64,000 nucleotides of DNA from an uncultured Bacteroides sp. (GCA_964601975.1 CAZRPW010000009.1:2224-66223), one strand, 5' to 3'; positions 2,976 through 64,000 are shown, counted from the first letter of the stretch. Notes: a model not told the origin generated them from the sequence alone. Numbers and translations are program-made.

Positions 2976-4096
2976 AAGATTTCCATAAGCTTTATGACCT
3001 CCACAGCAATCCTTTCGGCTGCATTGGAAATACCCAGTTTCTTTATATTTTCCGACAGTTCTTCCTGCCGCTTTTCATCCTTCAATAATTCAAGCATGGT
3101 ATCCACCAGCCTCTCCTCCGCCTCATGGTCAACAATCATCACCGCTGCATTCTGTCCGGAAAGGGCTTCTGCATTCCTTGTCTGGTGATCCTCTGCCACA
3201 TTGGGTGAGGGAACCAGGATTACCGGCTTCCCGATAACACAAAGTTCAGAGATGGAAATAGCCCCGGCCCTGGAAACGATCAAATCGGCTGCACCATAGG
3301 CACACTCCATCCTGGATATGAAAGGTAGCAGCCTGATATTCTTCAGTCCGGAAACCTCCACCTGCGCCTTTATCTCTTTGTAATTATTTTTTCCACACTG
3401 CCATATCAACTGAATGTCTTCCCGACCCAGCTTCTCCAGCCCGGCCAGCAGACTTCGATTCAGGGTTCTTGCCCCCAGGCTTCCTCCAATCACCAAACAG
3501 GTTTTTTTACCCATCTCCAATGCAAATTCCCGCAGGTCAGCAGAGCGATCGGCAGAAGGGACAACCAGGTGCTGACGGATAGGATTGCCGGTCAGATGGA
3601 TTTTTTCTTCCGGGAAGTAGCGTTCCATTCCCTCATAAGCCACGCAAATTGAGCGGGCCGAACGTGCCAGCAAACGATTGGTTACTCCCGCATATGAGTT
3701 CTGTTCCTGGATAAGGATGGGAACACCCCTTCTGGCTGCTGCTTTCAGAATAGGACCACTGGCATAGCCACCCACACCCACGGCAACATGAGGTTTATAG
3801 CGCCTCACAATCCGACGTGATATCAACAGGCTGGAGACCAGCTTAAAGAAAAATGAAATGTTTTTTAGCGTCAACCTCCTCTGAAAACCAGCCACCGGCA
3901 AGCCCTCTATTGCATAACCCGCTTCGGGCACCTTCTCCATCTCAAGTCTTCCACGAGCGCCCACAAACAGGAATTCGGCTCCGGGATGCATCACCTTCAA
4001 GGCATCAGCAATGGCAATGGCCGGAAACACATGTCCGCCAGTACCACCACCTCCTATGAGGATCCTGTATGTTTCGCCTTTAAACATGTTGATCAA
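2972..4096 (-). CDS. murG: UDP-GlcNAc:lipid I N-acetylglucosaminyltransferase MurG
   Basis: 374 aa with the GT28 N-terminal motif GGGTGGHVFPAIAIA. It sits in the dcw position. Confidence 0.95.
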   Translation of the reverse strand: MINMFKGETYRILIGGGGTGGHVFPAIAIADALKVMHPGAEFLFVGARGRLEMEKVPEAGYAIEGLPVAGFQRRLTLKNISFFFKLVSSLLISRRIVRRYKPHVAVGVGGYASGPILKAAARRGVPILIQEQNSYAGVTNRLLARSARSICVAYEGMERYFPEEKIHLTGNPIRQHLVVPSADRSADLREFALEMGKKTCLVIGGSLGARTLNRSLLAGLEKLGREDIQLIWQCGKNNYKEIKAQVEVSGLKNIRLLPFISRMECAYGAADLIVSRAGAISISELCVIGKPVILVPSPNVAEDHQTRNAEALSGQNAAVMIVDHEAEERLVDTMLELLKDEKRQEELSENIKKLGISNAAERIAVEVIKLMEIL

Positions 4097-5387
4097 ATTC
4101 AGTTCTCTTTTTCTTCTCTTTCCTCCTGCCCGTCATCTCGGCAGCTGTATTTCGTTTCTCCTTGCCTGCAATTTCTGACTCGAGTGGTCCGGCCGCCTCA
4201 TAGATGGGCCTCTCCTGCTGAGTCTCTGATCCGGGATCGTCCCCATCGTCCTCCTGGGCCTGTAGCCTGGATTCGTCAGTACCCCAGCTTACCGAAAGAA
4301 TCATACCGGCAGCCATACTTGTGAAAATGATAGAGGATCCCCCCATACTCACCAATGGAAGGGTCTGGCCGGTTACAGGCACAAGCCCCACCGCAACCGC
4401 CATATTTACAAAGGCCTGCAGTACCAAACCCATGGAAAGGCCAAATGCGAGGAAGGCTCCATAGGTGCTGCGGCTGCGCCGGATGATCAACCCGGCTCTG
4501 TAAAATAGCCACAGATACAAGGCCAGTACAAGGACTCCACCAACCAGGCTTCCATACTCCTCAATAATAATTGCGTAAATAAAATCGGAATAGGGATGGG
4601 GAACCAGGTTCCTCTGGGTACTGTTCCCGGGTCCCTTTCCGAACAGCCCACCCTGAACTATGGCTACCTTAGCCTGGTCGGCCTGGTAACTATCTCCTTC
4701 CCCACTCATAAAATTTTCAATCCTGTTTTTCCAGGTAGATGTACGTCCTTCCTTACCCAGCAGTTCGGATGCACCCAGAAACAGTCCAAATGCAAACACC
4801 CCTGCAAATATCATCAGCGCCAGGTACTTCACCGGGATCCGGGCCACAAACATGAGGGAAAATGCGGTGAGGAATACCAGCGCTGCTGTGGATAAATTAG
4901 CAGGCAGGATCAGGCCACAAACTACCACAATGGCCATGGTCACCTTCCCAAATACATCCCTGAACTCACCAATATTATTCTGGTTTGCAGAAAGCACTTT
5001 AGCCAGGTACATGATCAGAGCAATTTTGGCAAAGTCAGAGGTCTGAATTGTAAAAGAGGTCCCAGGAATTTGCAGCCAGCGCGTAGCATCATTAATGTTT
5101 TGTCCGGCCACCAGCGTAAGCACCAGAAGCGGCACTGCAACCCAAAGAGCCACCACTGAAAGACGGCCAAAAACCTGGTAGGGAATCAGGTGCACAAAAA
5201 AGATGATGAATACCCCCAGCAGAATAAATCTAAACTGCCTGAGCAGATAGTAGACTGTATCGCCGCCGCGGACCTGGTATGCCAGCGAACCGGTGGAGCT
5301 GTACACCGACAAGAGGGAGATCACCAGCAGAATCAAAACCACCAGCCAGATCACCTTATCACCCTTTATGTACTTCTTAATCTTCAC
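4080..5387 (-). CDS. ftsW: SEDS-family peptidoglycan polymerase FtsW with a ~67-aa charged C-terminal tail
   Basis: 435 aa, multi-TM, with QIPGTSFTIQTSDFAKI and GQTLPLVSMGGSS motifs. The start at 5387-5385 is GTG, preceded by a purine-rich aagagagag. The tail overlaps the murG start by 17 nt. Confidence 0.9.
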   Translation of the reverse strand: MKIKKYIKGDKVIWLVVLILLVISLLSVYSSTGSLAYQVRGGDTVYYLLRQFRFILLGVFIIFFVHLIPYQVFGRLSVVALWVAVPLLVLTLVAGQNINDATRWLQIPGTSFTIQTSDFAKIALIMYLAKVLSANQNNIGEFRDVFGKVTMAIVVVCGLILPANLSTAALVFLTAFSLMFVARIPVKYLALMIFAGVFAFGLFLGASELLGKEGRTSTWKNRIENFMSGEGDSYQADQAKVAIVQGGLFGKGPGNSTQRNLVPHPYSDFIYAIIIEEYGSLVGGVLVLALYLWLFYRAGLIIRRSRSTYGAFLAFGLSMGLVLQAFVNMAVAVGLVPVTGQTLPLVSMGGSSIIFTSMAAGMILSVSWGTDESRLQAQEDDGDDPGSETQQERPIYEAAGPLESEIAGKEKRNTAAEMTGRRKEKKKRTEFDQHV

Positions 5388-5401
5388 CTCTCTCTTTTTA
5401 C

Positions 5402-5473
5402 TTTACAGACTTTACAGACTTTACAGACTTTACAGACTTTACGGACTTTACAGACTTTACAGACTTTACAGAC
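5402..5473 (-). repeat. Tandem repeat, 9 bp x 8 (coding-strand unit AGTCTGTAA; one unit has A->G)
   Basis: The + strand reads tttacagac eight times (fifth unit tttacggac). The first coding-strand unit supplies the last two murD codons plus the TAA stop. The array ends 14 nt before the ftsW GTG start. Confidence 0.95.
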
Positions 5474-6812
5474 TTCGCACAGCAGATTTGAACTGTCGTC
5501 CGCGATCTTCAAAACTTTCAAATAAGTCGAAGCTGGCGCAGGCCGGAGAGAGCATTACTGTCTCACCGTCGGAAGCCAGGTAGTAGGCGGCCTTCACAGC
5601 ATCATCCATACTGGTAGACTCGACAATTGACTCCACCTTACCGGTAAAAGCCTTGATCACCCGCTCATTGTCTTTACCCAGACAGACAATGGCCTTTACC
5701 TTATTCTCCACCAGGTTGTTCAGTTCGCTATAATCATTTCCCTTGTCTACCCCTCCAACGATCCAGACCATACTGCCCTTCACACTTTCAAGGGCATACC
5801 AGGTCGCATTTACGTTGGTGGCTTTGGAATCATTTATAAAGTTGATCCCATGAACCTTCGTTACATTCTCAAGGCGGTGCTCCACTCCCTGAAAATCCAT
5901 CAGGGCTTCACGGATCACTTCATTGCGGATTTTCAGAACATTGCCTGCAATTCCTGCAGCCATGCTGTTGTAGGTATTGTGTCTTCCCTTCAGTGACAGC
6001 TCTTCAACAGACATGGAAAAATCCACATCGTCGAATTCTATATGCATATGCCTGTCCTCGTCAACCCAGGCCACATCATTCTTCTTTTTCTGATAGGCAA
6101 AGGGCAGTTGCTGAGCCTTGGATACGATCTTTTCAAGTTCCTTGATGGTAATCTCGTCATCGGAACAGAAAACAAAATATTCATCCTCGGTGAGGTTCTG
6201 ACCCACCCTGAATTTTGAATCTATATAATTCTGAAAGTTGTAGTCGTACCTGTCAAGATGGTCGGGGGTAATATTCAACAGGATGGCTATATCGGCTTTA
6301 AACTCATACATCCCATCCAGTTGGAAACTGCTTAGCTCCAACACAAAGTAGTCGAAGGTTTCGGTGGCCACCTGCAGGGCAAAACTTCGCCCCACATTCC
6401 CTGCGATACCCACATTCAATCCAGCTTTTCGCATCATATGATGAATCAGCGAGGTAGTAGTGGTTTTCCCGTTGCTACCGGTAATACAAATTTTCTTCGC
6501 AGAAGTATAGCGACCTGCAAACTCAATTTCTGAAATGATTGGAATTTCCTTTTTGCGCAGCAGTTTTATAATGGGTGCACTTTCAGGGATGCCCGGGCTT
6601 TTAATTACCTCTGTGGCGTTAAGAATCGAACGCTCGGAATGACCACCAGATTCATATAGGACCTGGTATTCATCTAATAAATCCCTGTAAAAGGGTTTAA
6701 TCTTACCAGCATCTGATACAAAAACATCAAATCCCTTTTGCCGGGCCAGTATTGCTGCTCCAGTTCCACTTTCTCCCGCTCCAAGGATGACTATTCTCTC
6801 TCTATTTTCCAT
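5466..6812 (-). CDS. murD: UDP-N-acetylmuramoylalanine--D-glutamate ligase
   Basis: 448 aa with N-terminal GAGESGTGAA and the P-loop GSNGKTTT. Confidence 0.95.
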   Translation of the reverse strand: MENRERIVILGAGESGTGAAILARQKGFDVFVSDAGKIKPFYRDLLDEYQVLYESGGHSERSILNATEVIKSPGIPESAPIIKLLRKKEIPIISEIEFAGRYTSAKKICITGSNGKTTTTSLIHHMMRKAGLNVGIAGNVGRSFALQVATETFDYFVLELSSFQLDGMYEFKADIAILLNITPDHLDRYDYNFQNYIDSKFRVGQNLTEDEYFVFCSDDEITIKELEKIVSKAQQLPFAYQKKKNDVAWVDEDRHMHIEFDDVDFSMSVEELSLKGRHNTYNSMAAGIAGNVLKIRNEVIREALMDFQGVEHRLENVTKVHGINFINDSKATNVNATWYALESVKGSMVWIVGGVDKGNDYSELNNLVENKVKAIVCLGKDNERVIKAFTGKVESIVESTSMDDAVKAAYYLASDGETVMLSPACASFDLFESFEDRGRQFKSAVRSL

Positions 6813-36634: not shown

Positions 36635-38128
36635 CTATTTAACTACTACTTTGTGTGTTTCGGATTTCTCACCGCTAATTACATTAATAAGATACATTCC
36701 TTTAGTCAGGCTTGACAGATCAACCTCCACTTTCGAGCTGTTGATGCTATGCTTACCTCCTACTAACATCCCACTGATACTGTAGATGTTGTAGCTGGAA
36801 ATATCTGAAGAGGAATTCTCAATATAAAGTCTTCCTTCTGCCGGGTTTGGATATACAACCATTTGAAGATCGTAAGATTGAAGGTCTTTAACTCCGGTAG
36901 TACCACCGCCGGTAAACCAAACATGGAAAACCGGACCTTCTTCATCCATATCAAAGGAATAGGCATTCCTGTTTGCATCCTCATTAACCAAGCCTGTCAA
37001 TACAAACATCATATTGTTACCGGCTTCCCATCCGTCATTGGCAATAATTTCAGTAACGATTGCACTTAAATCAGGGGTCTGCTGTGCCTCAAGAACATCA
37101 AATTCTGCAAGCCATGGTGCAGGAGCCCAGTCAACCGTTGCTGTTGTACTGGCTTTTCCGGAAACACCAAAACTGATTGCCTTGATGGAATCCACCTGGG
37201 CTGAATCAACACCATAAATTTGGAGATCGATAGCAGCGTCTGAATCAGTTTTAGCAACAAACTGGATATATGCCTTACTGATGGTTGCACCGGCTGGAAT
37301 CTGTACATCACGGAATAAGGTTCCAATGTATTGTGGGACGTCATCCCAGTATAATTCCAGGTCAGAGCTACCTCTCGATACATCTCCTACTTCTATCTCC
37401 CAATCAGGGACTGCGAGTGAGGCTTCTTCAGCATCATCATTTCCATCGACAATCGGTATTGCCAGGTGATCGGGTTCTGCTACAGCCTCGGTATACCAAA
37501 CATGGAAAACCGGACCTTCTTCATCCATATCAAAGGAATAGGCATTCCTGTTTGCATCCTCATTAACCAAGCCTGTCAATACAAACATCATATTGTTACC
37601 GGCTTCCCATCCGTCATTGGCAATAATTTCAGTAACGATTGCACTTAAATCAGGGGTCTGCTGTGCCTCAAGAACATCAAATTCTGCCAGCCATGGTGCC
37701 GGAGCCCAGTCAACCATTGCTGTTGTTCTGGCTTTTCCGGAAACACCAAAGCTAATTGCCTTGATGGAATCCACCTGGGCTGAATCAACACCATAAATTT
37801 GAAGATCGATAGCGGCGTCTGAATCAGTTTTAGCAACAAACTGGATGTATGCAGAATCAATGGTTGCGCCTGCGGGTATCTGAACACCACGGAAGAGCGT
37901 CCCAATGAATTGTGGAACGTCATCCCAGTATAATTCCAGGTCAGAGCTACCTCTCGATACATCTCCTACTTCTATCTCCCAATCAGGGACTGCGAGTGAG
38001 GCTTCTTCAGCATCATCATTGCCATCGACAATCGGAATTGCCAGGTGTGTCTGCTGTGCTGAAATCCCCATGAACATGAAGAAAGCGACACAAAGCATTA
38101 CCATTCTAAAGTAAAATTTTGTTCTCAT
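36635..38128 (-). CDS. T9SS-secreted protein made of two ~193-aa copies of an uncharacterised module
   Basis: I set the start at MRTKFYFRMVMLCVAFFMFMGISAQQ (38128), which gives a signal peptide. The track start at 38179 is unlikely. Two modules run HLAIPIVDGNDDAEEASLAVPDWEIEVGDVSRGSSDLELYWDD...PVFHVW. The C-terminal VVYPNPAEGRLYIEN...GMYLINVISGEKSETHKVVVK is a T9SS CTD. Confidence 0.8.
   Translation of the reverse strand: MRTKFYFRMVMLCVAFFMFMGISAQQTHLAIPIVDGNDDAEEASLAVPDWEIEVGDVSRGSSDLELYWDDVPQFIGTLFRGVQIPAGATIDSAYIQFVAKTDSDAAIDLQIYGVDSAQVDSIKAISFGVSGKARTTAMVDWAPAPWLAEFDVLEAQQTPDLSAIVTEIIANDGWEAGNNMMFVLTGLVNEDANRNAYSFDMDEEGPVFHVWYTEAVAEPDHLAIPIVDGNDDAEEASLAVPDWEIEVGDVSRGSSDLELYWDDVPQYIGTLFRDVQIPAGATISKAYIQFVAKTDSDAAIDLQIYGVDSAQVDSIKAISFGVSGKASTTATVDWAPAPWLAEFDVLEAQQTPDLSAIVTEIIANDGWEAGNNMMFVLTGLVNEDANRNAYSFDMDEEGPVFHVWFTGGGTTGVKDLQSYDLQMVVYPNPAEGRLYIENSSSDISSYNIYSISGMLVGGKHSINSSKVEVDLSSLTKGMYLINVISGEKSETHKVVVK
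36890..38047 (-). repeat. In-frame tandem duplication, period 579 bp (2 copies)
   Basis: Antisense track ORFs recur at an offset of 579 bp with identical peptides (36863..37069 vs 37466..37648; 37014..37217 vs 37593..37796). Long stretches are therefore nucleotide-identical. Confidence 0.9.
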
Positions 38129-38206
38129 AATTGAAATTTTTAGATTATTACTGTAAATAATAGTGAAAATTGATATCAAAAATATTTAGGACTATGATTA
38201 TAATTT

Positions 38207-57288: not shown

Positions 57289-58517
57289 CAGCTTTTAACC
57301 GAGAATCCTGCCTTCTCCAGGTCCGTCCAATATGTGGGGTAGGATTTGGTAACTACCATGGGATCATCCACAGAAAGTACGCCAAAGGGAATCGCCAGGG
57401 GTGCAAAAGCCATGGCCATACGATGATCGTGATAAGTTTCAATCAAGGGTTCTTTTTCTGCAGGGCCCTTCTCCCCATCCCAGCTGATCCAGTCACCCGT
57501 GGCATCTGCCTCAAGCCTGAAACCGAATTTTCCCAATTCTGCCTGCAAAGCTGCCACCCGGTCGGTTTCCTTCACCCTCAGGGTGCGGGTCCCGGTAAAA
57601 TAAAAAGGAATCCCCATGGCACAAAGTGTTACCGCCAGGGTTTGCACCAGGTCGGGACAAGCAGTAAAATCGCAATTATAATGCTCCTTCCTGACATCCC
57701 GGTCGGAACGAAGAATCACCGAAGCGCCTTCGAAATGGCTCTCCACTCCCAGTGGCTCAAAAAGGCGTGTCAGTACAGCATCCCCCTGGAGGCTGTCTTT
57801 TTCCAATTGGGGAAGGGTAATGACAGAGCCAGGCTTTAGTGCCGCTATCTGGTACCAGTATGAGGCCGCACTCCAGTCCGATTCCACCCGAAAACGATCA
57901 AAGCTGTAGTTTCCCTGTTCAATTGAAATCTCCCGCCCGTCAAAAGATGCCGTAATGCCTCCTTTTTGCATCAGGGCAAGTGTCATCCGGATATAAGTAG
58001 ATGAAACCACATCGCCTGAAAGGGAAATCTGCAGTCCGCCTTCCAATACCGGACCAATCATCATCAGGGCACTGATGAACTGGGAACTAATGCCGCCATC
58101 CACGGTAATCCGGCCCCCTATTTTCAATCCACCACTGATCTCCAGTGGCGGACAGGCCTTTTTTTCAAGATAGGTAATTTCTGCTCCCAATTCCCTCAGG
58201 GCATCTACCAGTGCTCCCACCGGCCTCTGTTTCATCCGATCCGAACCCGTAAGGACCACCTTTTGGTTTCCGCAGGCCAAAAAAGCAGTCAAAAACCGCA
58301 TGGCGGTTCCGGCATGACCAATATCTTTCACCCGGGATTCCTGTTTTACAGCATCATTCAGCACCCTTGTATCGTCACTCTCCGAAAGGTTATCCAGTTC
58401 AAAGCCGCTACCAGAAAGGGCCCGCATAATCAGCATCCGGTTTGAAATGCTCTTCGAGGAAGGAATATAGATTTTATCTTGCACCGCTTTTTGTGGTCCG
58501 GAGATGACATTTTTCAT
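57285..58517 (-). CDS. aroA: 3-phosphoshikimate 1-carboxyvinyltransferase (EPSP synthase)
   Basis: 410 aa with IPSSKSISNRMLI and GHAGTAMRFLTA motifs. Confidence 0.9.
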   Translation of the reverse strand: MKNVISGPQKAVQDKIYIPSSKSISNRMLIMRALSGSGFELDNLSESDDTRVLNDAVKQESRVKDIGHAGTAMRFLTAFLACGNQKVVLTGSDRMKQRPVGALVDALRELGAEITYLEKKACPPLEISGGLKIGGRITVDGGISSQFISALMMIGPVLEGGLQISLSGDVVSSTYIRMTLALMQKGGITASFDGREISIEQGNYSFDRFRVESDWSAASYWYQIAALKPGSVITLPQLEKDSLQGDAVLTRLFEPLGVESHFEGASVILRSDRDVRKEHYNCDFTACPDLVQTLAVTLCAMGIPFYFTGTRTLRVKETDRVAALQAELGKFGFRLEADATGDWISWDGEKGPAEKEPLIETYHDHRMAMAFAPLAIPFGVLSVDDPMVVTKSYPTYWTDLEKAGFSVKSC

Positions 58518-58587
58518 GATTCAAAGATAATAAATAGCATATATTAGGCCTTGCAAAATATACAGCAATAGCAGAAACACGACCATC

Positions 58588-59754
58588 ATGAACTTTGAAG
58601 ATACCAAAACAGCCTTCAGCATTAAATCGGACCGCGATCTCTTCCGGGCAAACATTCTTTTTAAGCTGATCTCCTACCCCATCCTTGTAAAAATCGCCAA
58701 CCCCTTTATCTGGATCTGTTCCACACTGAGGATTCCCATCGGATGGATAGTGAAACCTACTGCATTTAAACATTTCGTGGGAGGTGAAACTCTGAAAGAC
58801 TGCCAGCCAGCCGTAGAAAAGCTCATGAGTGCAGGTGTATATTCAATCCTGGATTACTCGGTGGAAGGAAAGGAGTCGGATAAGGCCATCGATGCAGCCC
58901 TGCAGGAAACCCTCAGGGCAGTGAAGAATGCCGGAGCTAACCCGGACATCCCCTTTGCCGTTTTCAAGCCCACCGCTTTCGGCAACAACCAGGCCCTCGA
59001 AGCACTCAGTGGTGCATCTGTACCTGACAAGGAGATCATGAAGGAGGGTGAGAAATTCCGCGCACGCATCGACCAGCTCTGCCAAACGGCTTTCGACAAT
59101 GACATCCCCATCATGATTGATGCCGAAGATACTTTTTATCAGAATTTCATCGACCAGGTGGTGATGGATATGATGCGTAAGTACAACTATAAGAGAGCCA
59201 TCGTATTCAATACCTACCAGATGTACCGCCACGATCGAGTGGGTGTACTGGAACATGATATTCGTACCGCCAGGGAGGAGAAATTTTTCCTGGGAGCAAA
59301 GTTTGTCAGGGGAGCCTACATGGAAAGAGAGCGGGAACGTGCACGGAAGCTGCGCTACCCGGATCCCATCCAGCCCGATAAGGAAAGTACAGACAGGGAT
59401 TTCAACCTGGCTCTGAAAATTTCACTGGACAACATCGATGTGGTCTCCATTTTCAACGGGACTCATAACGAATACAGCAGCAAGTACCTGGCCGAGTTGA
59501 TGATCGAACGGAAAATGGATCCGGGCGACAAACGGGTATGGTTCTCTCAGCTCTACGGGATGAGTGAGCACATCAGTTTTAACATGGCTGCAGCTGGTTT
59601 TAATGTGGCAAAATATGTACCTTACGGTCCGGTTCGCTACGTGCTCCCCTACCTTATGAGAAGGGTGGAGGAGAATACCTCGGTAAAGGGACAGACCGGA
59701 CGCGAGCTCGCCCTGATCAGAAAAGAGCGAAACAGGCGTAAAAATGAGAATTGA
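58588..59754 (+). CDS. Proline dehydrogenase (monofunctional)
   Basis: 388 aa with the PutA-type TIM-barrel blocks HFVGGETL, MIDAEDTFYQ and SQLYGMSEH. Confidence 0.8.
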   Translation: MNFEDTKTAFSIKSDRDLFRANILFKLISYPILVKIANPFIWICSTLRIPIGWIVKPTAFKHFVGGETLKDCQPAVEKLMSAGVYSILDYSVEGKESDKAIDAALQETLRAVKNAGANPDIPFAVFKPTAFGNNQALEALSGASVPDKEIMKEGEKFRARIDQLCQTAFDNDIPIMIDAEDTFYQNFIDQVVMDMMRKYNYKRAIVFNTYQMYRHDRVGVLEHDIRTAREEKFFLGAKFVRGAYMERERERARKLRYPDPIQPDKESTDRDFNLALKISLDNIDVVSIFNGTHNEYSSKYLAELMIERKMDPGDKRVWFSQLYGMSEHISFNMAAAGFNVAKYVPYGPVRYVLPYLMRRVEENTSVKGQTGRELALIRKERNRRKNEN

Positions 59755-60223
59755 CAACCAGAAAAACACCTACAGAATTTGGCTGAGAAGACTGATTATG
59801 GCCATTGGATTTACAATGGGCATCGTAGTGCTTATACTTGTCCCCTGGTTTAGCAATCCAGATCTGAAACTGACCGAATACCATGTAATCATTTTCATTG
59901 CCGTTATATACGTGGGGATTAACATTTTCAACTCTGGAAAGAAACCCTGTTTTTTTTCTTACAGCGACCATGGTGACATGCTTGTAATACGCTATTATCC
60001 ACTAAGCCTGATGAATAGCAAAAAGCACTCCATCGAAATCCCGAAACAACAGTTTGTGAAATACGAGCTGAAACCTTTTTTCTTCGGCCGTCACCAAAAG
60101 ATCATCCTCTACCAGCACTTCCGCAACAAGGTGGTGACCTACCCTCCCATCAGCCTTTCGGCCCTTGAAGAGGAAGACCGTTCCCGGATCATCGCCTCTC
60201 TTCAGAAATACAGCAGGACATAG
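59744..60223 (+). CDS. Hypothetical membrane protein (two N-terminal TM helices)
   Basis: 159 aa. Its last 12 sense codons contain the left copy of the 37-bp direct repeat. Confidence 0.5.
   Translation: MRIDNQKNTYRIWLRRLIMAIGFTMGIVVLILVPWFSNPDLKLTEYHVIIFIAVIYVGINIFNSGKKPCFFSYSDHGDMLVIRYYPLSLMNSKKHSIEIPKQQFVKYELKPFFFGRHQKIILYQHFRNKVVTYPPISLSALEEEDRSRIIASLQKYSRT
60176..60212 (+). repeat. Left copy of a perfect 37-bp direct repeat (candidate attL)
   Basis: gaccgttcccggatcatcgcctctcttcagaaataca is identical to 63564..63600. The bases immediately outside differ on both sides. Confidence 0.95.
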
Positions 60224-60251
60224 CGTTTCGCGTTTTCCTCCATCTGAAACA

Positions 60252-61085
60252 TTAAAAAGCATCAAAATCAGCAAGCTCAAAACAAATATCCCCTTTACCA
60301 AATATTGGTATATTACCTTGTAAATCTTTAAAAAGCAGATTTAAAGGTGACGGTTTTAAAAAATCAGGCATATTAAAGAACATTCCACTTTCCTTTTTTT
60401 CTTTAGATAATCCAATCCAAATATTAAAGTTTGATTTATGACTTTTTAGAAGCAATTCATCAATTTCTAATATATCTAGATACTTTAATTGAGCACACAA
60501 TCCTATTTTGTTAACTTTTGCGAGAATTGACTGGTTGTCATGATGATAACATATTGCTGGATTCTTTAGTCGCCATGCTAAGGATTCTTTAGTCCAGCAA
60601 GAATAAACATTCTGAGTTCTAATATCTAATGGAATTATCTTACCAAAACCAATTTTCACAGCAAGTGGAGAAATTAACCTAAATCCAAATTTATTTAGAT
60701 AACCATGTGTACTGTTTGCATTTGTAACTGTAATTACAAAATCATAATTCAGTCTTTTGGCTTCATTAAAAGTAGCATTACCTAATTCAGTAAGTAAACC
60801 TTTACCCTGATGGTCTGGATGTGTAACATTATTAATAGCTAATATCCCTTTATATTGTTTCCCGAAAAAACTATATACAACAGGAATTGTAGCATGATGT
60901 GCAATTAATTCACCATTAAAAAATGCATCTGACCCAATTATTGACCCATTCGGATTTTGTGAATATTGCCAAAGTAGAAATTCAGGTGTAAACTTTGGGT
61001 TTTTATTAAAAACTCGAGACAAAAGTTTTGAATAAGCAATAATATTTTCAGTTGATGTATTCGATTTTAAAATTTGATAATACAT
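60252..61085 (-). CDS. GNAT-family N-acetyltransferase
   Basis: The acetyl-CoA-binding motif-A-like block is VTHPDHQGKGLLTELGNATFNEAKRL. I set the start at MYYQILK (61085). The track start at 61115 would overlap the upstream gene by 23 nt. Confidence 0.65.
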   Translation of the reverse strand: MYYQILKSNTSTENIIAYSKLLSRVFNKNPKFTPEFLLWQYSQNPNGSIIGSDAFFNGELIAHHATIPVVYSFFGKQYKGILAINNVTHPDHQGKGLLTELGNATFNEAKRLNYDFVITVTNANSTHGYLNKFGFRLISPLAVKIGFGKIIPLDIRTQNVYSCWTKESLAWRLKNPAICYHHDNQSILAKVNKIGLCAQLKYLDILEIDELLLKSHKSNFNIWIGLSKEKKESGMFFNMPDFLKPSPLNLLFKDLQGNIPIFGKGDICFELADFDAF

Positions 61086-61092
61086 AATTCTT

Positions 61093-61953
61093 TTACAGCT
61101 TAGAATTTTTAACAAAACTTGAATATGTACAAATATTATACCCCTGAGCCATTATACCATCCAAGCGATTAAATACTTTACTTCTATTATAATACATAAG
61201 GAAATTATAAAAATGGCTGTCATTAATTCCTGGATTCATATATCTTTCCTGTTCTGAATCAATGTCATATGGATGAAAATAACCTACTACAGGCATCTTG
61301 TTTTTAAGGCGTTTTTTTGTAATGCTTTTTATACTCAGAAAAGGTAATACCCTAAAATATACTCCACCAACGGCAGGAACAATTACTGGGCCGAACTTTC
61401 CCATTGTTAAAGGAATTTCAACTATTTTATTATTTACCCTTTTGGGAGAATATCCAAAATTCTCCCAGCCATAAAATGGATTCTTTGCAGGCAAAACAGA
61501 ACTTGAATAAGTGAACCCCAATTCAAAAAGTATATCATATGCCCATTGTGTTTTGGGAGTTAATGAAAATATAGGAGCTCTAAAACCCTCTATTTTCTTT
61601 GCTCCTGCACGTTCTAATGCTAATATATTTTTTTCCAGATCGATTCTGAATTCTATTGGTGTTTGTTTATCTAATGGCAAATGATCATTAGTATGACAAG
61701 CTATTTCATGACCCTCACTAATTATTTCATTAATAAGTGAAGGATATAATCTAGCTATATCGCCTGTAACAAAAAAAGTACATTTAGAATTAGAACTTTT
61801 AAGCCATTCAAGATACCTATGAGTATTAACCGGAACTCTTTCTTTAAAATCCTCAGGCTTTGCTAGCCTTAATCTAATATCCTCTAAATCAATACTAAAC
61901 AAAAATGTGCTGCATTTTGAGTTTATTTCCATACTTCTATTTATTATATACAA
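61093..61953 (-). CDS. Polysaccharide deacetylase (CE4-like, of the type found in exopolysaccharide/PEP-CTERM loci)
   Basis: 286 aa. FSIDLEDIRL...CTFFVTGDIARLYPSLINEIISEGHEIACHTNDH matches the NodB-type deacetylase layout (D-x-E/D and H-x-x-x-H blocks). Confidence 0.75.
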   Translation of the reverse strand: MYIINRSMEINSKCSTFLFSIDLEDIRLRLAKPEDFKERVPVNTHRYLEWLKSSNSKCTFFVTGDIARLYPSLINEIISEGHEIACHTNDHLPLDKQTPIEFRIDLEKNILALERAGAKKIEGFRAPIFSLTPKTQWAYDILFELGFTYSSSVLPAKNPFYGWENFGYSPKRVNNKIVEIPLTMGKFGPVIVPAVGGVYFRVLPFLSIKSITKKRLKNKMPVVGYFHPYDIDSEQERYMNPGINDSHFYNFLMYYNRSKVFNRLDGIMAQGYNICTYSSFVKNSKL

Positions 61954-61994
61954 CTATCAACTCTTTCATTTTTAATTGAATCTAGCATTATACC

Positions 61995-62649
61995 TGACCC
62001 CCTCCCATTATCCTGTGCCAGACAGAAGTAGAGAATTTGGGCTTTCTGTGTGTTCCGAATGTACTTCACTCGGAGTTAAATTATTTAATGAACTATGGGG
62101 TCTAAACCCATAGTAATCTCTTCGCCACTGTTCGATTTTCTGCTTAGCGTCGAGTAAAGATAGAAACCAATTTACATTAAAACACTCATCTCGGAAACTT
62201 CCATTATCAACCTGAATCCTCTTAGGCATCTCATTCTCTTCGAAATTTATACGGTTACGAATATCCACCACTCAGCTCCCCTGATGAATTGATCTGCGTG
62301 TATAGCCATGCATTTGCGACTATAATTATCGACTATAGATAAAGCCCGGAATCTTTGTCCATTGAAGAGTTGATCAGCTACAAAATCTATACTTCAGCAC
62401 TGAATTAATCCTTAAGATACAGGGGTGAGCGCTCCGGTTTAACCTTATTTTACAGGGATGACCAAAACCTAGACCTTCTAGCCCAAAGCCATACCTTTAT
62501 AACTATATCATACAAGGTCAATTCTAACCGGTAAACTTTTCGCGATTGTATCGCGGATGTGGCTCAACATAAAATCCGTCTTCAGATGATTTTTTATGTG
62601 AGACGCATCGCTGGAGCTTGCTCCAGCTCGGTGCGAGGGGGGAGTTACA
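61995..62649 (-). mobile_element. Decayed IS3-family insertion-sequence remnant with candidate imperfect terminal inverted repeats
   Basis: The low end read inward is TGACCCCCTCCCA (61995-). The high end read inward on the other strand is TGTAACTCCCCCCTCGCA (62649-). Both start with TG, as IS3-family ends do. At ~655 bp it is far shorter than an intact IS3. Confidence 0.4.
62008..62393 (-). pseudogene. IS3-family DDE transposase (OrfB) pseudogene
   Basis: 62271..62008 reads ...RIQVDNGSFRDECFNVNWFLSLLDAKQKIEQWRRDYYGFRPHSSLNNLTPSEV, the C-terminal rve/IS3 signature. A different frame at 62393..62281 reads SIDFVADQLFNGQRFRALSIVDNYSRKCMAIHADQFIRGAE. That frame is preceded by an in-frame TGA. There is a frameshift at ~62275 and roughly 60 aa are missing between DNG and FRDEC. 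Confidence 0.7.
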
Positions 62650-62735
62650 GTATCTTTACCTTGTTATATATTCACACACATCGAGGTGAAACTTCCAAAC
62701 TGCAGTAGGTCCTTAACAATGCCTTAACAGCCTGC

Positions 62736-63440
62736 TCAAAGCTTTGTTTTTAAACTAAAAAAGAACATTGAGTAGTAATCCCCTCCAAATTCATAAGCGC
62801 CTTTGATCCATACCGGCATTCTAGGATTCCTAATTGCTAAATACTCAATGAAAACATTTGGGTGCAACATTTTTGATTGATTAATCCGGAATAAAAAATC
62901 TTGGGAATAATGCTTGGAATCGACTTCACCTCTTATATAATACTTCCAAACTGTTAGTTCCCAAATGATAAACTTAGCGCCAATTCCAATGTTAAATCTT
63001 CCAATATTATAGGCTAATTCGGATGGAATTTCAATGGTGTGATAAATATCTTTCACTCTGTAATCCCCTAAAGTTGGGTAGTATACTTTGCTGATAGAAT
63101 CACGATAAAGCCTAAAATGATATTTTCTGGTGTTCCATTCAAGACCTATTCTGAGATTTAATGATTTGAAAATCTCAAAATTATAATGAGTGCCGATATG
63201 AGTTGAAAAGCAATCGTAGGAATAAGTGCTATCAATGTGCGGAAATGTTGGATCTATAACATATGGATTAGATATATGCAGCCTGCTTTCTGTAATAAAT
63301 TTCCAATTTAGCCCTCCATACAAGTAAAACCCATTTTTGTCTTTTTGGATTTTATAGGAATACTGACCATTTACTTCAACGATTCCAAAAGATGTAATTA
63401 ATAGTATTATCCCAGCCAACATTACATTTGTAATCTTCAT
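62736..63440 (-). CDS. Hypothetical secreted protein, possibly an outer-membrane beta-barrel
   Basis: 234 aa with a signal peptide (MLAGIILLITSFGIVEVNG). It is rich in alternating aromatic/polar residues (Y, F, W), its codon usage is AT-rich, and I recognise no motif. Confidence 0.4.
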   Translation of the reverse strand: MKITNVMLAGIILLITSFGIVEVNGQYSYKIQKDKNGFYLYGGLNWKFITESRLHISNPYVIDPTFPHIDSTYSYDCFSTHIGTHYNFEIFKSLNLRIGLEWNTRKYHFRLYRDSISKVYYPTLGDYRVKDIYHTIEIPSELAYNIGRFNIGIGAKFIIWELTVWKYYIRGEVDSKHYSQDFLFRINQSKMLHPNVFIEYLAIRNPRMPVWIKGAYEFGGDYYSMFFFSLKTKL

Positions 63441-63563
63441 TGCAGGTATTACTTGTGGGGTTCCTCTTTTTAACGCTTGAAAACTAAGCTAGATTGTCAA
63501 AGAAGTTAAATTCTCCGAGTGAAATGTTTCCAATCAAGGCTAAGCGAAATTCAATCCATTGTG

Positions 63564-63600
63564 GACCGTTCCCGGATCATCGCCTCTCTTCAGAAATACA
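63564..63600 (+). repeat. Right copy of the perfect 37-bp direct repeat (candidate attR)
   Basis: It is identical to 60176..60212. In the same frame it would read ...DRSRIIASLQKYTIK*, an alternative 3' end for ORF 59744..60223. Confidence 0.95.
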
Positions 63601-63649
63601 CAATTAAGTAACAACGGTGGAAAGCCCTCCCTGCGGCTCTATAGAACGA

Positions 63650-64000
63650 TTATTGAATTTGTTGCGACTGAATGACGCTGTCTGCTTTCACCATGTATAA
63701 ATCGAATCCTCCCAGCCCCCCGGGTCTGTTGGATGAAAAGATCATGAGGTACTCGTTATCGTAAAAAGGAAAAGTAATGGGTCTGTATTCATCATATTCG
63801 GTGTTGATCTCCGGTCCGAAGTTCACAGGGCTGGTCCACTCCCCATTTTGAAGGAGCGAAAAGTAGAGATCGAATCCTCCCTGCCCACCCTCTCTGTCTG
63901 AAGCAAATACAAGAAGGTCCTTGTAAATGGATGGACACTTATCATTATAATCACTGGACAACACCTGATTCAAAGCCACCTGTCCGGGTTCAGTACCGGT
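63650..64000 (-). CDS. PD40 (TolB-like beta-propeller repeat) protein, C-terminal part (gene continues past the right edge)
   Basis: It has two PD40-type repeats, FASDREGGQGGFDLYFSLLQNGEWTSPVNFGPEINTEYDEYRP and FSSNRPGGLGGFDLYMV. The reading frame stays open to the window edge, so the track's Met at 63979 is not the true start. Confidence 0.6.
   Translation of the reverse strand, partial: TGTEPGQVALNQVLSSDYNDKCPSIYKDLLVFASDREGGQGGFDLYFSLLQNGEWTSPVNFGPEINTEYDEYRPITFPFYDNEYLMIFSSNRPGGLGGFDLYMVKADSVIQSQQIQ

Follow-up and report, generated by a model that had tools for sequence, protein, structure and literature searches.

How does a block of foreign DNA come to lie between two copies of the 3' end of one gene? 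The question is raised by a locus in a 64,000-nt stretch of DNA from an uncultured Bacteroides sp., which we analysed over its full length (the window). An earlier note on this DNA had described a perfect 37-bp direct repeat within the 3' end of an open reading frame (59744..60223, here ORF159) and had read it as an integration scar (attL/attR) of an element without its own recombinase. We found exactly two copies of the 37-mer GACCGTTCCCGGATCATCGCCTCTCTTCAGAAATACA in the window, and no further one when up to 3 mismatches were allowed. The bases bordering the copies are unlike at either end (A/G before, G/C after), which fixes the repeat length at exactly 37 bp, and both copies run as described into an in-frame stop (...QKYSRT-stop on the left, ...QKYTIK-stop on the right). 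None of 100 shuffled controls gave a match, and the number of such pairs expected by chance is about 1e-13. The scar reading had been considered at risk if the 37-mer were dispersed. With two copies in the window and no additional ones among viral or JGI metagenome contigs, this concern did not materialize. Within the 64 kb, the 37-mer is the sole short exact dispersed repeat; all others come from paralogous genes, from repeated domains or from a 9-nt tandem array.

A foreign islet between two copies of a gene end

The DNA between the copies (60213-63563) has a G+C content of 33.5%, compared with 45.2 +/- 2.6% for 3.3-kb windows elsewhere in the window, and its tetranucleotide distance from the window background is 11.4 sd (z-score). 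These G+C and k-mer profiles agree with the AT-richness noticed earlier, and the local counts given for it were reproduced (15/60 G+C at 60301-60360, 36/60 at 60121-60180). That is, the 3.35-kb interval is foreign DNA, a horizontally acquired and strain-variable islet.

Searches against Pfam and NCBIfam bore out the cargo originally claimed, namely a GNAT, a polysaccharide deacetylase, a decayed IS3 transposase and an orphan ORF (Table 1). The GNAT gene (best homologue 67% identical) comes second in a conserved deacetylase-GNAT pair, which is also present in ordinary chromosomal contexts of other Bacteroidota (L093-L096). Its partner resembles the deacetylase family of XrtA systems, with a score under the curated cut-off. 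The IS3 remnant carries a frameshift and an internal deletion and lacks the N-terminal part. For the orphan ORF only 4 homologues were found (61-66% identity), and the region upstream of it, similar to that upstream of the L091 homologue, belongs to the same unit. The non-coding stretch gave no RNA family and no protein match, the 28-nt spacer matched none of the related loci with which it was compared, and the 45 nt abutting the right repeat copy showed no significant similarity to the ancestral ORF159-dprA spacer. The island was found in no other context, and its proteins were seen only at this locus. No ORF159 sequence lies upstream of the right copy.

Transposons and insertion sequences are recognized by a target duplication of 2-15 bp, terminal inverted repeats and a transposase. 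Such an element with target-site duplication was rejected, since the repeat measures 37 bp and the sole transposase is the internal, truncated IS3 remnant; terminal inverted repeats at the island ends were not reported.

Table 1. Features of the island and its flanks (coordinates are those of the window)
Feature	Coordinates	Strand	Remarks
ORF159, conserved hypothetical membrane-protein gene	59744..60223	+	159 aa; ends ...QKYSRT-stop in the window
Left 37-bp copy	60176..60212	+	ORF159 codons D145-Y156 and first base of codon 157
SRT-stop tail, GCAGGACATAG	60213..60223	+	with the preceding A, identical to how the gene ends natively in sister species L008
Spacer, ORF159 stop to GNAT stop	60224..60251		28 nt; left edge of foreign DNA versus sister species
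GNAT (Acetyltransf_9) gene	60252..61115	-	Pfam; gene callers: 277 aa, start 61085
Polysaccharide deacetylase gene (Polysacc_deac_1 + DUF3473)	61093..61953	-	Pfam/NCBIfam
Decayed IS3-family transposase remnant	62008..62400	-	rve_3 E=2e-14 (fragment 62008-62271), transpos_IS3, six-frame reading
Non-coding stretch	62401..62735		~41% G+C
Orphan ORF	62736..63440	-	234 aa; N-terminal signal-like hydrophobic segment
Upstream region of orphan gene	63441..63518	-	~82% identical to region upstream of L091 homologue
45 nt abutting right repeat copy	63519..63563		novel joint ...ccattgtg/GACCG at 63563/63564
Right 37-bp copy	63564..63600	+	detached 3' fragment of ORF159
TIK-stop tail, CAATTAAGTAA	63601..63611	+	working ORF159 end in the island-free haplotype (L004, L092)
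PD40-repeat lipoprotein gene, 3' part	63650..64000	-	Pfam; 338 aa, continues past the window

Two alleles and two gene ends

Two alleles of the locus coexist in the sampled population. The W allele, that of the window, consists of ORF159 with the SRT-stop end, the island, the 37-mer with the TIK-stop end, PD40 and dprA, while the T allele consists of ORF159 with the TIK-stop end, PD40 and dprA. The left junction of W was recovered in L001, L002 and L003 and its right junction in L005, L006 and L177 (four samples overall). The T junction (left flank, one 37-mer, QKYTIK-stop, PD40) was recovered in L004 and L092, which belong to the same metagenome series but to two further samples; the predicted empty site, an ORF ending in ...QKYTIK-stop directly before PD40, is thus present in two independent assemblies. 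ORF159 remains intact at 159 aa with the island present or absent. The islet is a discrete presence/absence polymorphism with edges that coincide exactly with the repeat, and the repeat is not a target duplication, but the stretch common to two alternative 3' ends of ORF159.

L004 and L092 have three linked SNPs in the right flank (at 63608, 63616 and 63642, where the W strains read G, G and T) and therefore represent other strains, not fresh excisions. The right flanks of T and W accordingly show 3 differences in their first 49 nt; within the W contigs, the island is near-invariant (0-2 SNPs). L092 has 16 SNPs at 59639-60001 versus ~0.1% divergence elsewhere, and L004, which has 15 SNPs in 87 nt (57531-57617), shows no other difference from the window as far as the repeat. 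These clusters in flanking core genes are signs of homologous recombination.

Which of the two gene ends is the older can be read from relatives, in which ORF159 lies between a proline dehydrogenase gene and dprA. The protein belongs to no Pfam or NCBIfam family, and 379 homologues were found in Bacteroidota MAGs. In the sister species L008-L010, ORF159 is located directly before dprA, with neither island nor PD40. L008 reads ...CAGAAGTACAGCAGGACATAG, followed by a 57-nt spacer and dprA, and the last 12 nt of its gene, AGCAGGACATAG (SRT-stop), are identical to the left junction of the window; L009 and L010 combine the same architecture with other tails. Among 120 homologues the tails following QKY are diverse, TIK being absent among those listed, and since they vary so widely, independent convergence on SRT is unlikely. 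Contig L005 supplies the full PD40 gene, followed by dprA, gdh and tatD (the right-flank genes encode PD40, DprA, GDH, TatD and an asparaginase). No PD40 homologue was found in 170 related loci, and homology to the L008 spacer persists in the final ~40 nt before dprA (0/500 shuffles reached the score). PD40 is a lineage-specific insertion between ORF159 and dprA. Since L008 carries the same 12 nt, and since the TIK-stop end is contiguous with a PD40 gene absent from all relatives, the left tail is the inherited gene end and the right tail the derived one, in a comparison whose closest reference genome has an ORF159 just 78% identical and for which few close relatives are sampled. This is the reverse of the initial suggestion that the right copy may be the ancestral end.

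Recombination in the ORF159-dprA interval

In 50 of the 68 GTDB loci, dprA is the immediate neighbour of ORF159. The interval holds different inserted genes in 18/68 GTDB and 13/39 metagenome loci, the unrelated inserts being 0.4-7 kb in size, and it is a hotspot of gene transfer between core genes. Many transfer hotspots are known to lack mobile elements and to show recombination in the core genes on either side (Oliveira et al. 2017, PMC5635113). Like these, the present locus is flanked by core genes, contains different genes in relatives, is free of mobility genes and has SNP clusters in its flanks. However, a long exact direct repeat does not normally enclose the islets of such hotspots, whereas here a detached 48-nt gene-end fragment would mark the hybrid joint of two haplotypes.

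We tentatively favour, with somewhat less than even confidence, that the W allele is a hybrid of two conspecific haplotypes, produced by general or illegitimate recombination at this hotspot. The derived TIK-stop end would have arisen through insertion of PD40 between ORF159 and dprA. In an unsampled S-type haplotype the island would directly follow the native SRT-stop, and combination of S type and T type would give the W hybrid; the existence of an S-type intermediate, the enzyme involved and the sequence of events are what we infer here. Most likely, the join would have been made by the general recombination machinery of the cell and not by an island-specific integrase. It could have followed one of two routes: a Campbell-type RecA crossover, in which a circularised S-type fragment and a T-type chromosome recombine within their 37 identical bp, or one-sided homologous recombination combined with an illegitimate join at ...ccattgtg/GACCG. 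The topology fits a single crossover, and RecA or an illegitimate join could equally have been responsible. Later, homologous recombination in the flanking core genes may have shuffled the polymorphism among strains, and a crossover between the two 37-mers could delete the island again.

Neither the S-type haplotype nor a circular or linear intermediate was observed among the sampled contigs, and 37 bp is near the lower limit for RecA-dependent exchange; both points count against a hybrid origin. Homology-facilitated illegitimate recombination and Campbell-type crossover likewise add foreign DNA by means of a homologous anchor and one non-homologous joint, and they can duplicate a short stretch of the recipient. 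Both are known mainly from laboratory transformation experiments. For the organism studied here, natural competence and the donor haplotype are presumed.

Alternative origins of the island allele

A perfect direct repeat with a gene 3' end, a foreign block and a clean single-copy empty site form the classic signature of site-specific integration. A decayed, att-flanked integrative element (CIME-like) is a serious rival to the hybrid origin, even if we regard it as rather unlikely. According to this explanation, a circular element would have integrated into the 3' end of ORF159 in a T-type host. Its attP would have comprised the 45-nt arm, the 37-mer and the SRT-stop as surrogate end, the two 37-mers would be attL and attR, and its tyrosine or serine recombinase gene would have been lost, or the enzyme would act in trans, encoded by another element of the genome. 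The exact coincidence of the direct repeat with both boundaries of a block of foreign composition, the empty site with a single repeat copy in the population, the position of the repeat in a gene 3' end that leaves ORF159 intact in both states, and the IS3 remnant, which indicates a history of decay in the block, all speak for such an element. The SRT-stop tail would fit as well if the element came from conspecific hosts with the inherited end, since such elements normally carry the end of their target gene.

However, the search for a cognate recombinase came back empty: no such gene or fragment was found in the island (Pfam and NCBIfam on ORFs, six-frame reading of gaps) or in the flanking DNA, which covered 60 kb on the left and 5.7 kb on the right. 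The 40 ORFs across 1-55000 comprise dcw-cluster, polysaccharide-utilisation-type (SusC/SusD-like) and sigma/FecR functions. No integrase or conjugation remnants, or any other ICE or IME remnants, were detected in the island, no cognate ICE or IME in the window, L005 or related loci, and no attP junction among the contigs; to our knowledge, no ICE or IME with this specificity has been described. The gene end is not repeated downstream of ORF159 in any of 80 GTDB and 79 metagenome loci of the family, and no second island bracketed by it was found among these ~160 loci. Further points against a CIME-like origin are a cargo of ordinary chromosomal genes, the absence of the 37-mer from viral and JGI metagenome contigs together with an island at one site only, and empty alleles with different linked SNPs, which give no sign of current excision. 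In addition, the 'surrogate' tail is the inherited host tail, so that the element would need to have captured 48 nt from this lineage. Dyad symmetry of the 37-mer and its junctions did not exceed that of shuffled controls (best inverted arms matching at 6/9 positions, the mode of the controls), a weak test given that some core sites are poorly symmetric.

A recognised class of elements has kept attL and attR while losing the genes for integration and transfer (PMC5704250). The streptococcal CIMEs, decayed ICE/IME remnants, share with the present locus a short island devoid of integration and transfer genes, a perfect direct repeat of tens of bp with a gene 3' end, an intact gene and a single-copy empty site elsewhere (PMC5704250). 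In contrast to them, our island is without integrase or conjugation remnants and shows no tandem accretion, its 37-mer has no detectable core-type symmetry, the site is unused in the ~160 related loci, and the tail next to the gene is the one inherited by the host, not a diverged surrogate. The island lacks integration and transfer genes, and its repeats are candidate att sites. Of the integration scar proposed at the outset, the foreign block, the discrete polymorphism and the edges at the repeat have held, while attL and attR are unsupported or unproven, with no recombinase in the island or the flanks searched and no reuse at ~160 loci. Nothing shows that a dedicated integrase made the 37-bp repeat; the locus is a variable islet of an ordinary kind, unusual in just one respect.

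IMEX, which use XerCD at dif, also integrate without encoding a recombinase, and short direct repeats flank them. Sites of the dif type are ~28 bp long, have two inverted arms and are located at the replication terminus. The 37-mer is ORF159 coding sequence and shows no dyad symmetry above shuffled controls, and IMEX at dif were rejected.

Unlikely, in our view, is a minimal recombinase-less integrative cassette that moves into and out of the chromosome by way of a 37-48-bp mimic of the ORF159 gene end and is driven by an unlinked recombinase in trans or by host recombination in natural transformation. If true, no CIME-like or 'gene-end mimic' cassette would have been described in Bacteroidales before, and this one would be a live polymorphism of a natural population. 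Alongside the natural-transformation option, we note that the insertion site adjoins dprA.

Also unlikely is a scenario in which W is the older allele and T arose from it secondarily, when a crossover between the 37-mers deleted the island. The additional gene-end copy would then derive from an earlier tandem duplication or a replication or repair accident and would have been remodelled by the PD40 insertion. Given an inherited SRT-stop and PD40 in both alleles, an ancestor with both tails would need just one later deletion, for which direct repeats of ~37 bp are substrates. But the exact 37-nt copy 3.4 kb downstream is left essentially unexplained, or takes several unobserved steps; moreover, the strongly foreign composition and the near-invariance of the island suggest a recent arrival, and the 3/49 right-flank differences argue against T as a recent derivative of a sampled W strain.

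Finally, it is very improbable that metagenome assembly across a short shared k-mer created the repeat or the 'empty' junction: although all evidence comes from short-read metagenome assemblies, L004 and L006 both end at 63697 and L006 ends 7 nt short of the left repeat (which points to graph branching), and L002 has non-matching ends, independent assemblies from at least 2 samples contain each of the W junctions and the T junction, in L092 the T junction has linked SNPs of its own to the left and to the right, and L003 and L006 overlap by 548 nt over the left part of the island, so that the W allele is contiguous.

The islet and its filled and empty alleles

The DNA at 60213-63563 of the window is bracketed by a perfect direct repeat, the 37-mer GACCGTTCCCGGATCATCGCCTCTCTTCAGAAATACA. 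Since the bases flanking the two copies differ on both sides, the repeat is exactly 37 bp. At up to 3 mismatches only these two copies occur in the window, and no further short exact dispersed repeat was found in the 64 kb. Shuffled controls gave a 37-mer match in 0 of 100 cases (chance expectation ~1e-13 such pairs). The G+C content of the enclosed island is 33.5% versus 45.2 ± 2.6% in other 3.3-kb windows, and its tetranucleotide profile lies 11.4 standard deviations off the window background. The G+C counts of the earlier note were reproduced on recount, and the frames read as it stated (left ...QKYSRT*, right ...QKYTIK*).

Features of the islet and its borders (window coordinates)
Feature	Position	Strand	Remarks
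ORF159, 159-aa conserved hypothetical protein	59744-60223	+	no Pfam/NCBIfam family
Left repeat copy	60176-60212		
Spacer	60224-60251		28 nt
GNAT (Acetyltransf_9) gene	60252-61115	-	
Polysaccharide deacetylase gene	61093-61953	-	with DUF3473
IS3-family transposase remnant	~62008-62400	-	frameshift, internal deletion, N-terminal part absent
Stretch without assigned origin	62401-62735		335 nt
Orphan ORF, 234 aa	62736-63440	-	signal-like N-terminus
Part of the orphan gene unit	63441-63518		78 nt, ~82% identical to the upstream region of the homologue on contig L091
Stretch without assignment	63519-63563		45 nt
Right repeat copy	63564-63600		
TIK* tail	63601-63611		
PD40-repeat gene, 3' end	from 63650	-	

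ORF159 overlaps the end of a proline dehydrogenase gene. Within the island, the GNAT and deacetylase genes overlap as an operon-like pair. The IS3 remnant lacks the central part of its catalytic domain, ...QVDNGS joining FRDEC... directly, and a frameshift separates this stretch from the upstream ...DFVADQLFNGQRFRALSIVDNYSRKC segment. The right end of the island, ...GAAATTCAATCCATTGTG (also given as ...CCATTGTG), runs into the right 37-mer. A tRNA scan and an Rfam search of 58000-64000 (E<=1) returned no match; there is thus no tRNA or tmRNA target.

Exact-protein look-up retrieved short contigs from five samples of one metagenome series (MUDA16-1, SAMN06140898-902). The left junction of the filled (W) allele was found as in the window on L001, L002 and L003 and the right junction on L005, L006 and L177; L003 and L006 share an overlap of 548 nt, which makes the filled allele contiguous. 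The empty site predicted in the earlier note is present. In L004 (sample 901) and L092 (sample 900), the left flank is followed by a single 37-mer, CAATTAAATAA and the PD40 3' region, that is, ORF159 ends ...QKYTIK* directly before PD40. Both contigs differ from all W contigs at three right-flank SNPs (63608 A, 63616 T and 63642 C, versus G, G and T in W), which identifies this empty (T) allele as a real haplotype of other strains. On these contigs it is not an assembly mis-join, nor has it freshly arisen by excision from the W strain. Sample 901 holds W and T contigs together.

Two SNP clusters were observed in the left flank: 16 SNPs in ~360 nt of L092 (59639-60001), across the proline dehydrogenase/ORF159 boundary, and 15 SNPs in 87 nt of L004 (57531-57617), inside the EPSP synthase gene. 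Strain divergence outside them is ~0.1%, and both look like homologous-recombination tracts. Separately, L002 (ENA ERZ23495372, scaffold_44959) matches window positions 58895-60437 and diverges at both ends. Its 1,543 identical nt comprise the 3' part of proline dehydrogenase, ORF159-SRT* and the first 214 island nt, stopping inside the GNAT gene. The remainder (L002 1-52 and 1596-2192) is unrelated AT-rich DNA (33.6% G+C) encoding a membrane protein; CAGCC stands at both breakpoints, and the ends matched none of the fetched sequences. Either the L002 scaffold is chimeric, or the segment truly entered another genome by illegitimate insertion.

Polarity of the two gene ends

The closest relatives with usable contigs are from sister species (ORF159 amino acid identity 89% for L008 and L009, 84% for L010). 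All three carry proline dehydrogenase, ORF159, a ~60-nt spacer, dprA, gdh and tatD in this order, with neither the island nor PD40. The L008 gene ends in ...CAGAAGTACAGCAGGACATAG, and its final 12 nt (SRT*) equal window 60212-60223; the L009 tail is AACAGGAGATAA and that of L010 is different again. What follows QKY is freely variable in the 120 listed homologues, and none of them has TIK. The identity with L008 and the absence of TIK among the listed homologues mark the island-side SRT* as the vertically inherited gene end. The earlier note had suggested that the right copy may be the ancestral end; this polarity has to be reversed, since the inherited SRT* is on the left and TIK* is contiguous with PD40. 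Whatever delivered the island consequently brought or kept 48 nt of the lineage's own gene end.

The PD40-repeat lipoprotein gene (338 aa; window 63601-64000 plus L005:4934-6087) lies between ORF159 and dprA. No PD40 homologue was found among 170 related loci, and PD40 itself is thus an insertion, by this comparison a lineage-specific one. It swaps the last three ORF159 codons from SRT to TIK, and the protein stays exactly 159 aa long. In L005, the final ~40 nt before dprA retain homology to the L008 spacer, with a score that 0 of 500 shuffles reached. An ancestral TIK*/PD40 arrangement was rejected after a PD40 homologue beside ORF159 was sought in relatives and none was found. A degenerate third gene-end copy or the ancestral spacer was searched for at the right end of the island and not found; the L008 spacer did align with GAAATTCA-ATCC, a match that 52 of 500 shuffles equalled and that was dropped as not significant.

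Origin of the filled allele

With R for the repeat and X for the DNA between its copies, W reads left-R-X-R-right and T reads left-R-right; robustly, the two are one reciprocal crossover within R, or its reverse, apart. The inherited tail opens X, and the derived tail comes after the R on the right, which makes W a hybrid of two haplotypes. The partners would have been a T-type chromosome and DNA of a conspecific arrangement with the island just after the native stop (ORF159-SRT*-island, S type). Either (a) a circularised S-type fragment would have entered where the 37 bp are identical, RecA making the crossover, or (b) one-sided homologous recombination would have been completed by an illegitimate join at ...ccattgtg/GACCG. 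Taken jointly, these two routes are our tentative preference, at a little below even: the tail beside the island belongs to the host itself, no remnant of a recombinase or of conjugation genes is present, the cargo consists of ordinary chromosomal genes, the site is reused in none of ~160 relatives, and the interval acts like transfer hotspots that lack mobile elements, its flanks carrying recombination tracts (compare PMC5635113). The S type was sought by looking up every island protein as an exact match; this returned W-type contigs of the series only.

A third route, (c), also fits and is a serious, if less likely, alternative. Here an element with an attP that imitates the inherited gene end over 48 nt would have integrated site-specifically, its recombinase being lost or acting in trans, as in CIMEs, decayed integrative elements that keep attL and attR (PMC5704250). 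This route keeps its weight because the pattern as a whole is what textbooks describe and sampling of close relatives is sparse. Family scans and six-frame reading revealed no recombinase encoded in the island. The cognate enzyme that the earlier note proposed to look for was not found there, among 40 ORFs across 1-55000 (dcw cluster, polysaccharide-utilisation-type loci with SusC/SusD-like genes, glycoside hydrolases, ECF sigma/FecR pairs) or in the 5.7 kb to the right (PD40, DprA, GDH, TatD and asparaginase on L005). The 37-mer had no match in JGI metagenome and viral contigs with third codon positions free. Neither the 37-mer nor any of its four possible junctions had more dyad symmetry than shuffled controls, and dif-like features of the att candidates were rejected as chance level.

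An alignment of the ORF159 family, scanned against the GTDB species representatives, yielded 80 loci, all from uncultured Bacteroidales or Bacteroidota (best identity 78%). In 68 of them dprA was located; it adjoins ORF159 in 50, and 18 hold unrelated insertions of 0.4-7 kb with normal composition; no gene end is repeated downstream. The ~80 JGI metagenome loci agree with this: 26 are adjacent, 13 have insertions and 40 are undetermined, the sole repeat of note being in L163, where 16 nt are locally duplicated in tandem. Such varied insertions mark the interval as a place of repeated insertion that lacks mobility genes. What was found across the window, L005 and the related loci fits a hotspot islet; no recombinase, cognate element or recurrent site use was seen there, nor an attP junction on any contig. 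Across Bacteroidales (L011-L176), ORF159 lies directly upstream of dprA, with a gap of 22-130 nt in most loci, and roughly one lineage in four has unrelated genes (0.4-7 kb) in the interval.

The reverse history, in which W is older and T arose by deletion, is improbable, and an assembly artefact can be set aside as highly implausible. A transposon target-site duplication was rejected: the repeat measures 37 bp, terminal inverted repeats are absent, and only 4 of 11 positions agree between the 11-nt tails that follow the two copies.

In its working the feature would resemble a Campbell-type insertion, and in appearance it is CIME-like; it is a fresh instance of kinds already known, and the kind itself is not new. 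Filled and empty alleles of a small islet coexisting in one environmental population provide a clean natural example in which sister species let the gene ends be polarised. A long perfect direct repeat with a gene 3' end is not by itself proof of an integrase scar. The gene-proximal copy with the inherited end points to a probable hybrid of two conspecific haplotypes, the att-like repeat being, on this evidence, the presumptive overlap of two alternative gene ends. Should excision prove to be precise, this would instead be a rare Bacteroidales example of a mobilizable cassette that lacks an integrase.

Cargo and other features of the window

The best homologues of the GNAT are 67% identical, and a two-gene deacetylase-GNAT cassette is found again in other Bacteroidota (L093-L096), where its chromosomal surroundings are ordinary. 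The orphan protein has four homologues (61-66% identity), one adjoining toxin-antitoxin genes and none among viral contigs; its structure prediction from a 5-sequence alignment was unusable (pLDDT 28.8). PADLOC detected no defence system among the island proteins. The pair and the putatively secreted orphan suggest strain-level variation in cell-surface chemistry.

Elsewhere in the window, ~10 tandem copies of the 9-nt unit ACTTTACAG (5391-5489) lie between murD (5466-6812, -) and ftsW (4080-5387, -), overlapping the last murD codons. Two 300-nt segments (36910-37209 and 37489-37788), 98% identical and 579 nt apart, lie in one gene (36635-38179, -) whose product has a type IX secretion sorting domain; their likeness seems to reflect either a recent duplication within the gene or gene conversion that is still going on. 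In addition, two paralogous ECF sigma/FecR-like anti-sigma pairs (38218-39394/53036-54188 and 41064-41363/54347-54646) share 75-82% DNA identity, each heading a glycan-utilisation-type cluster.
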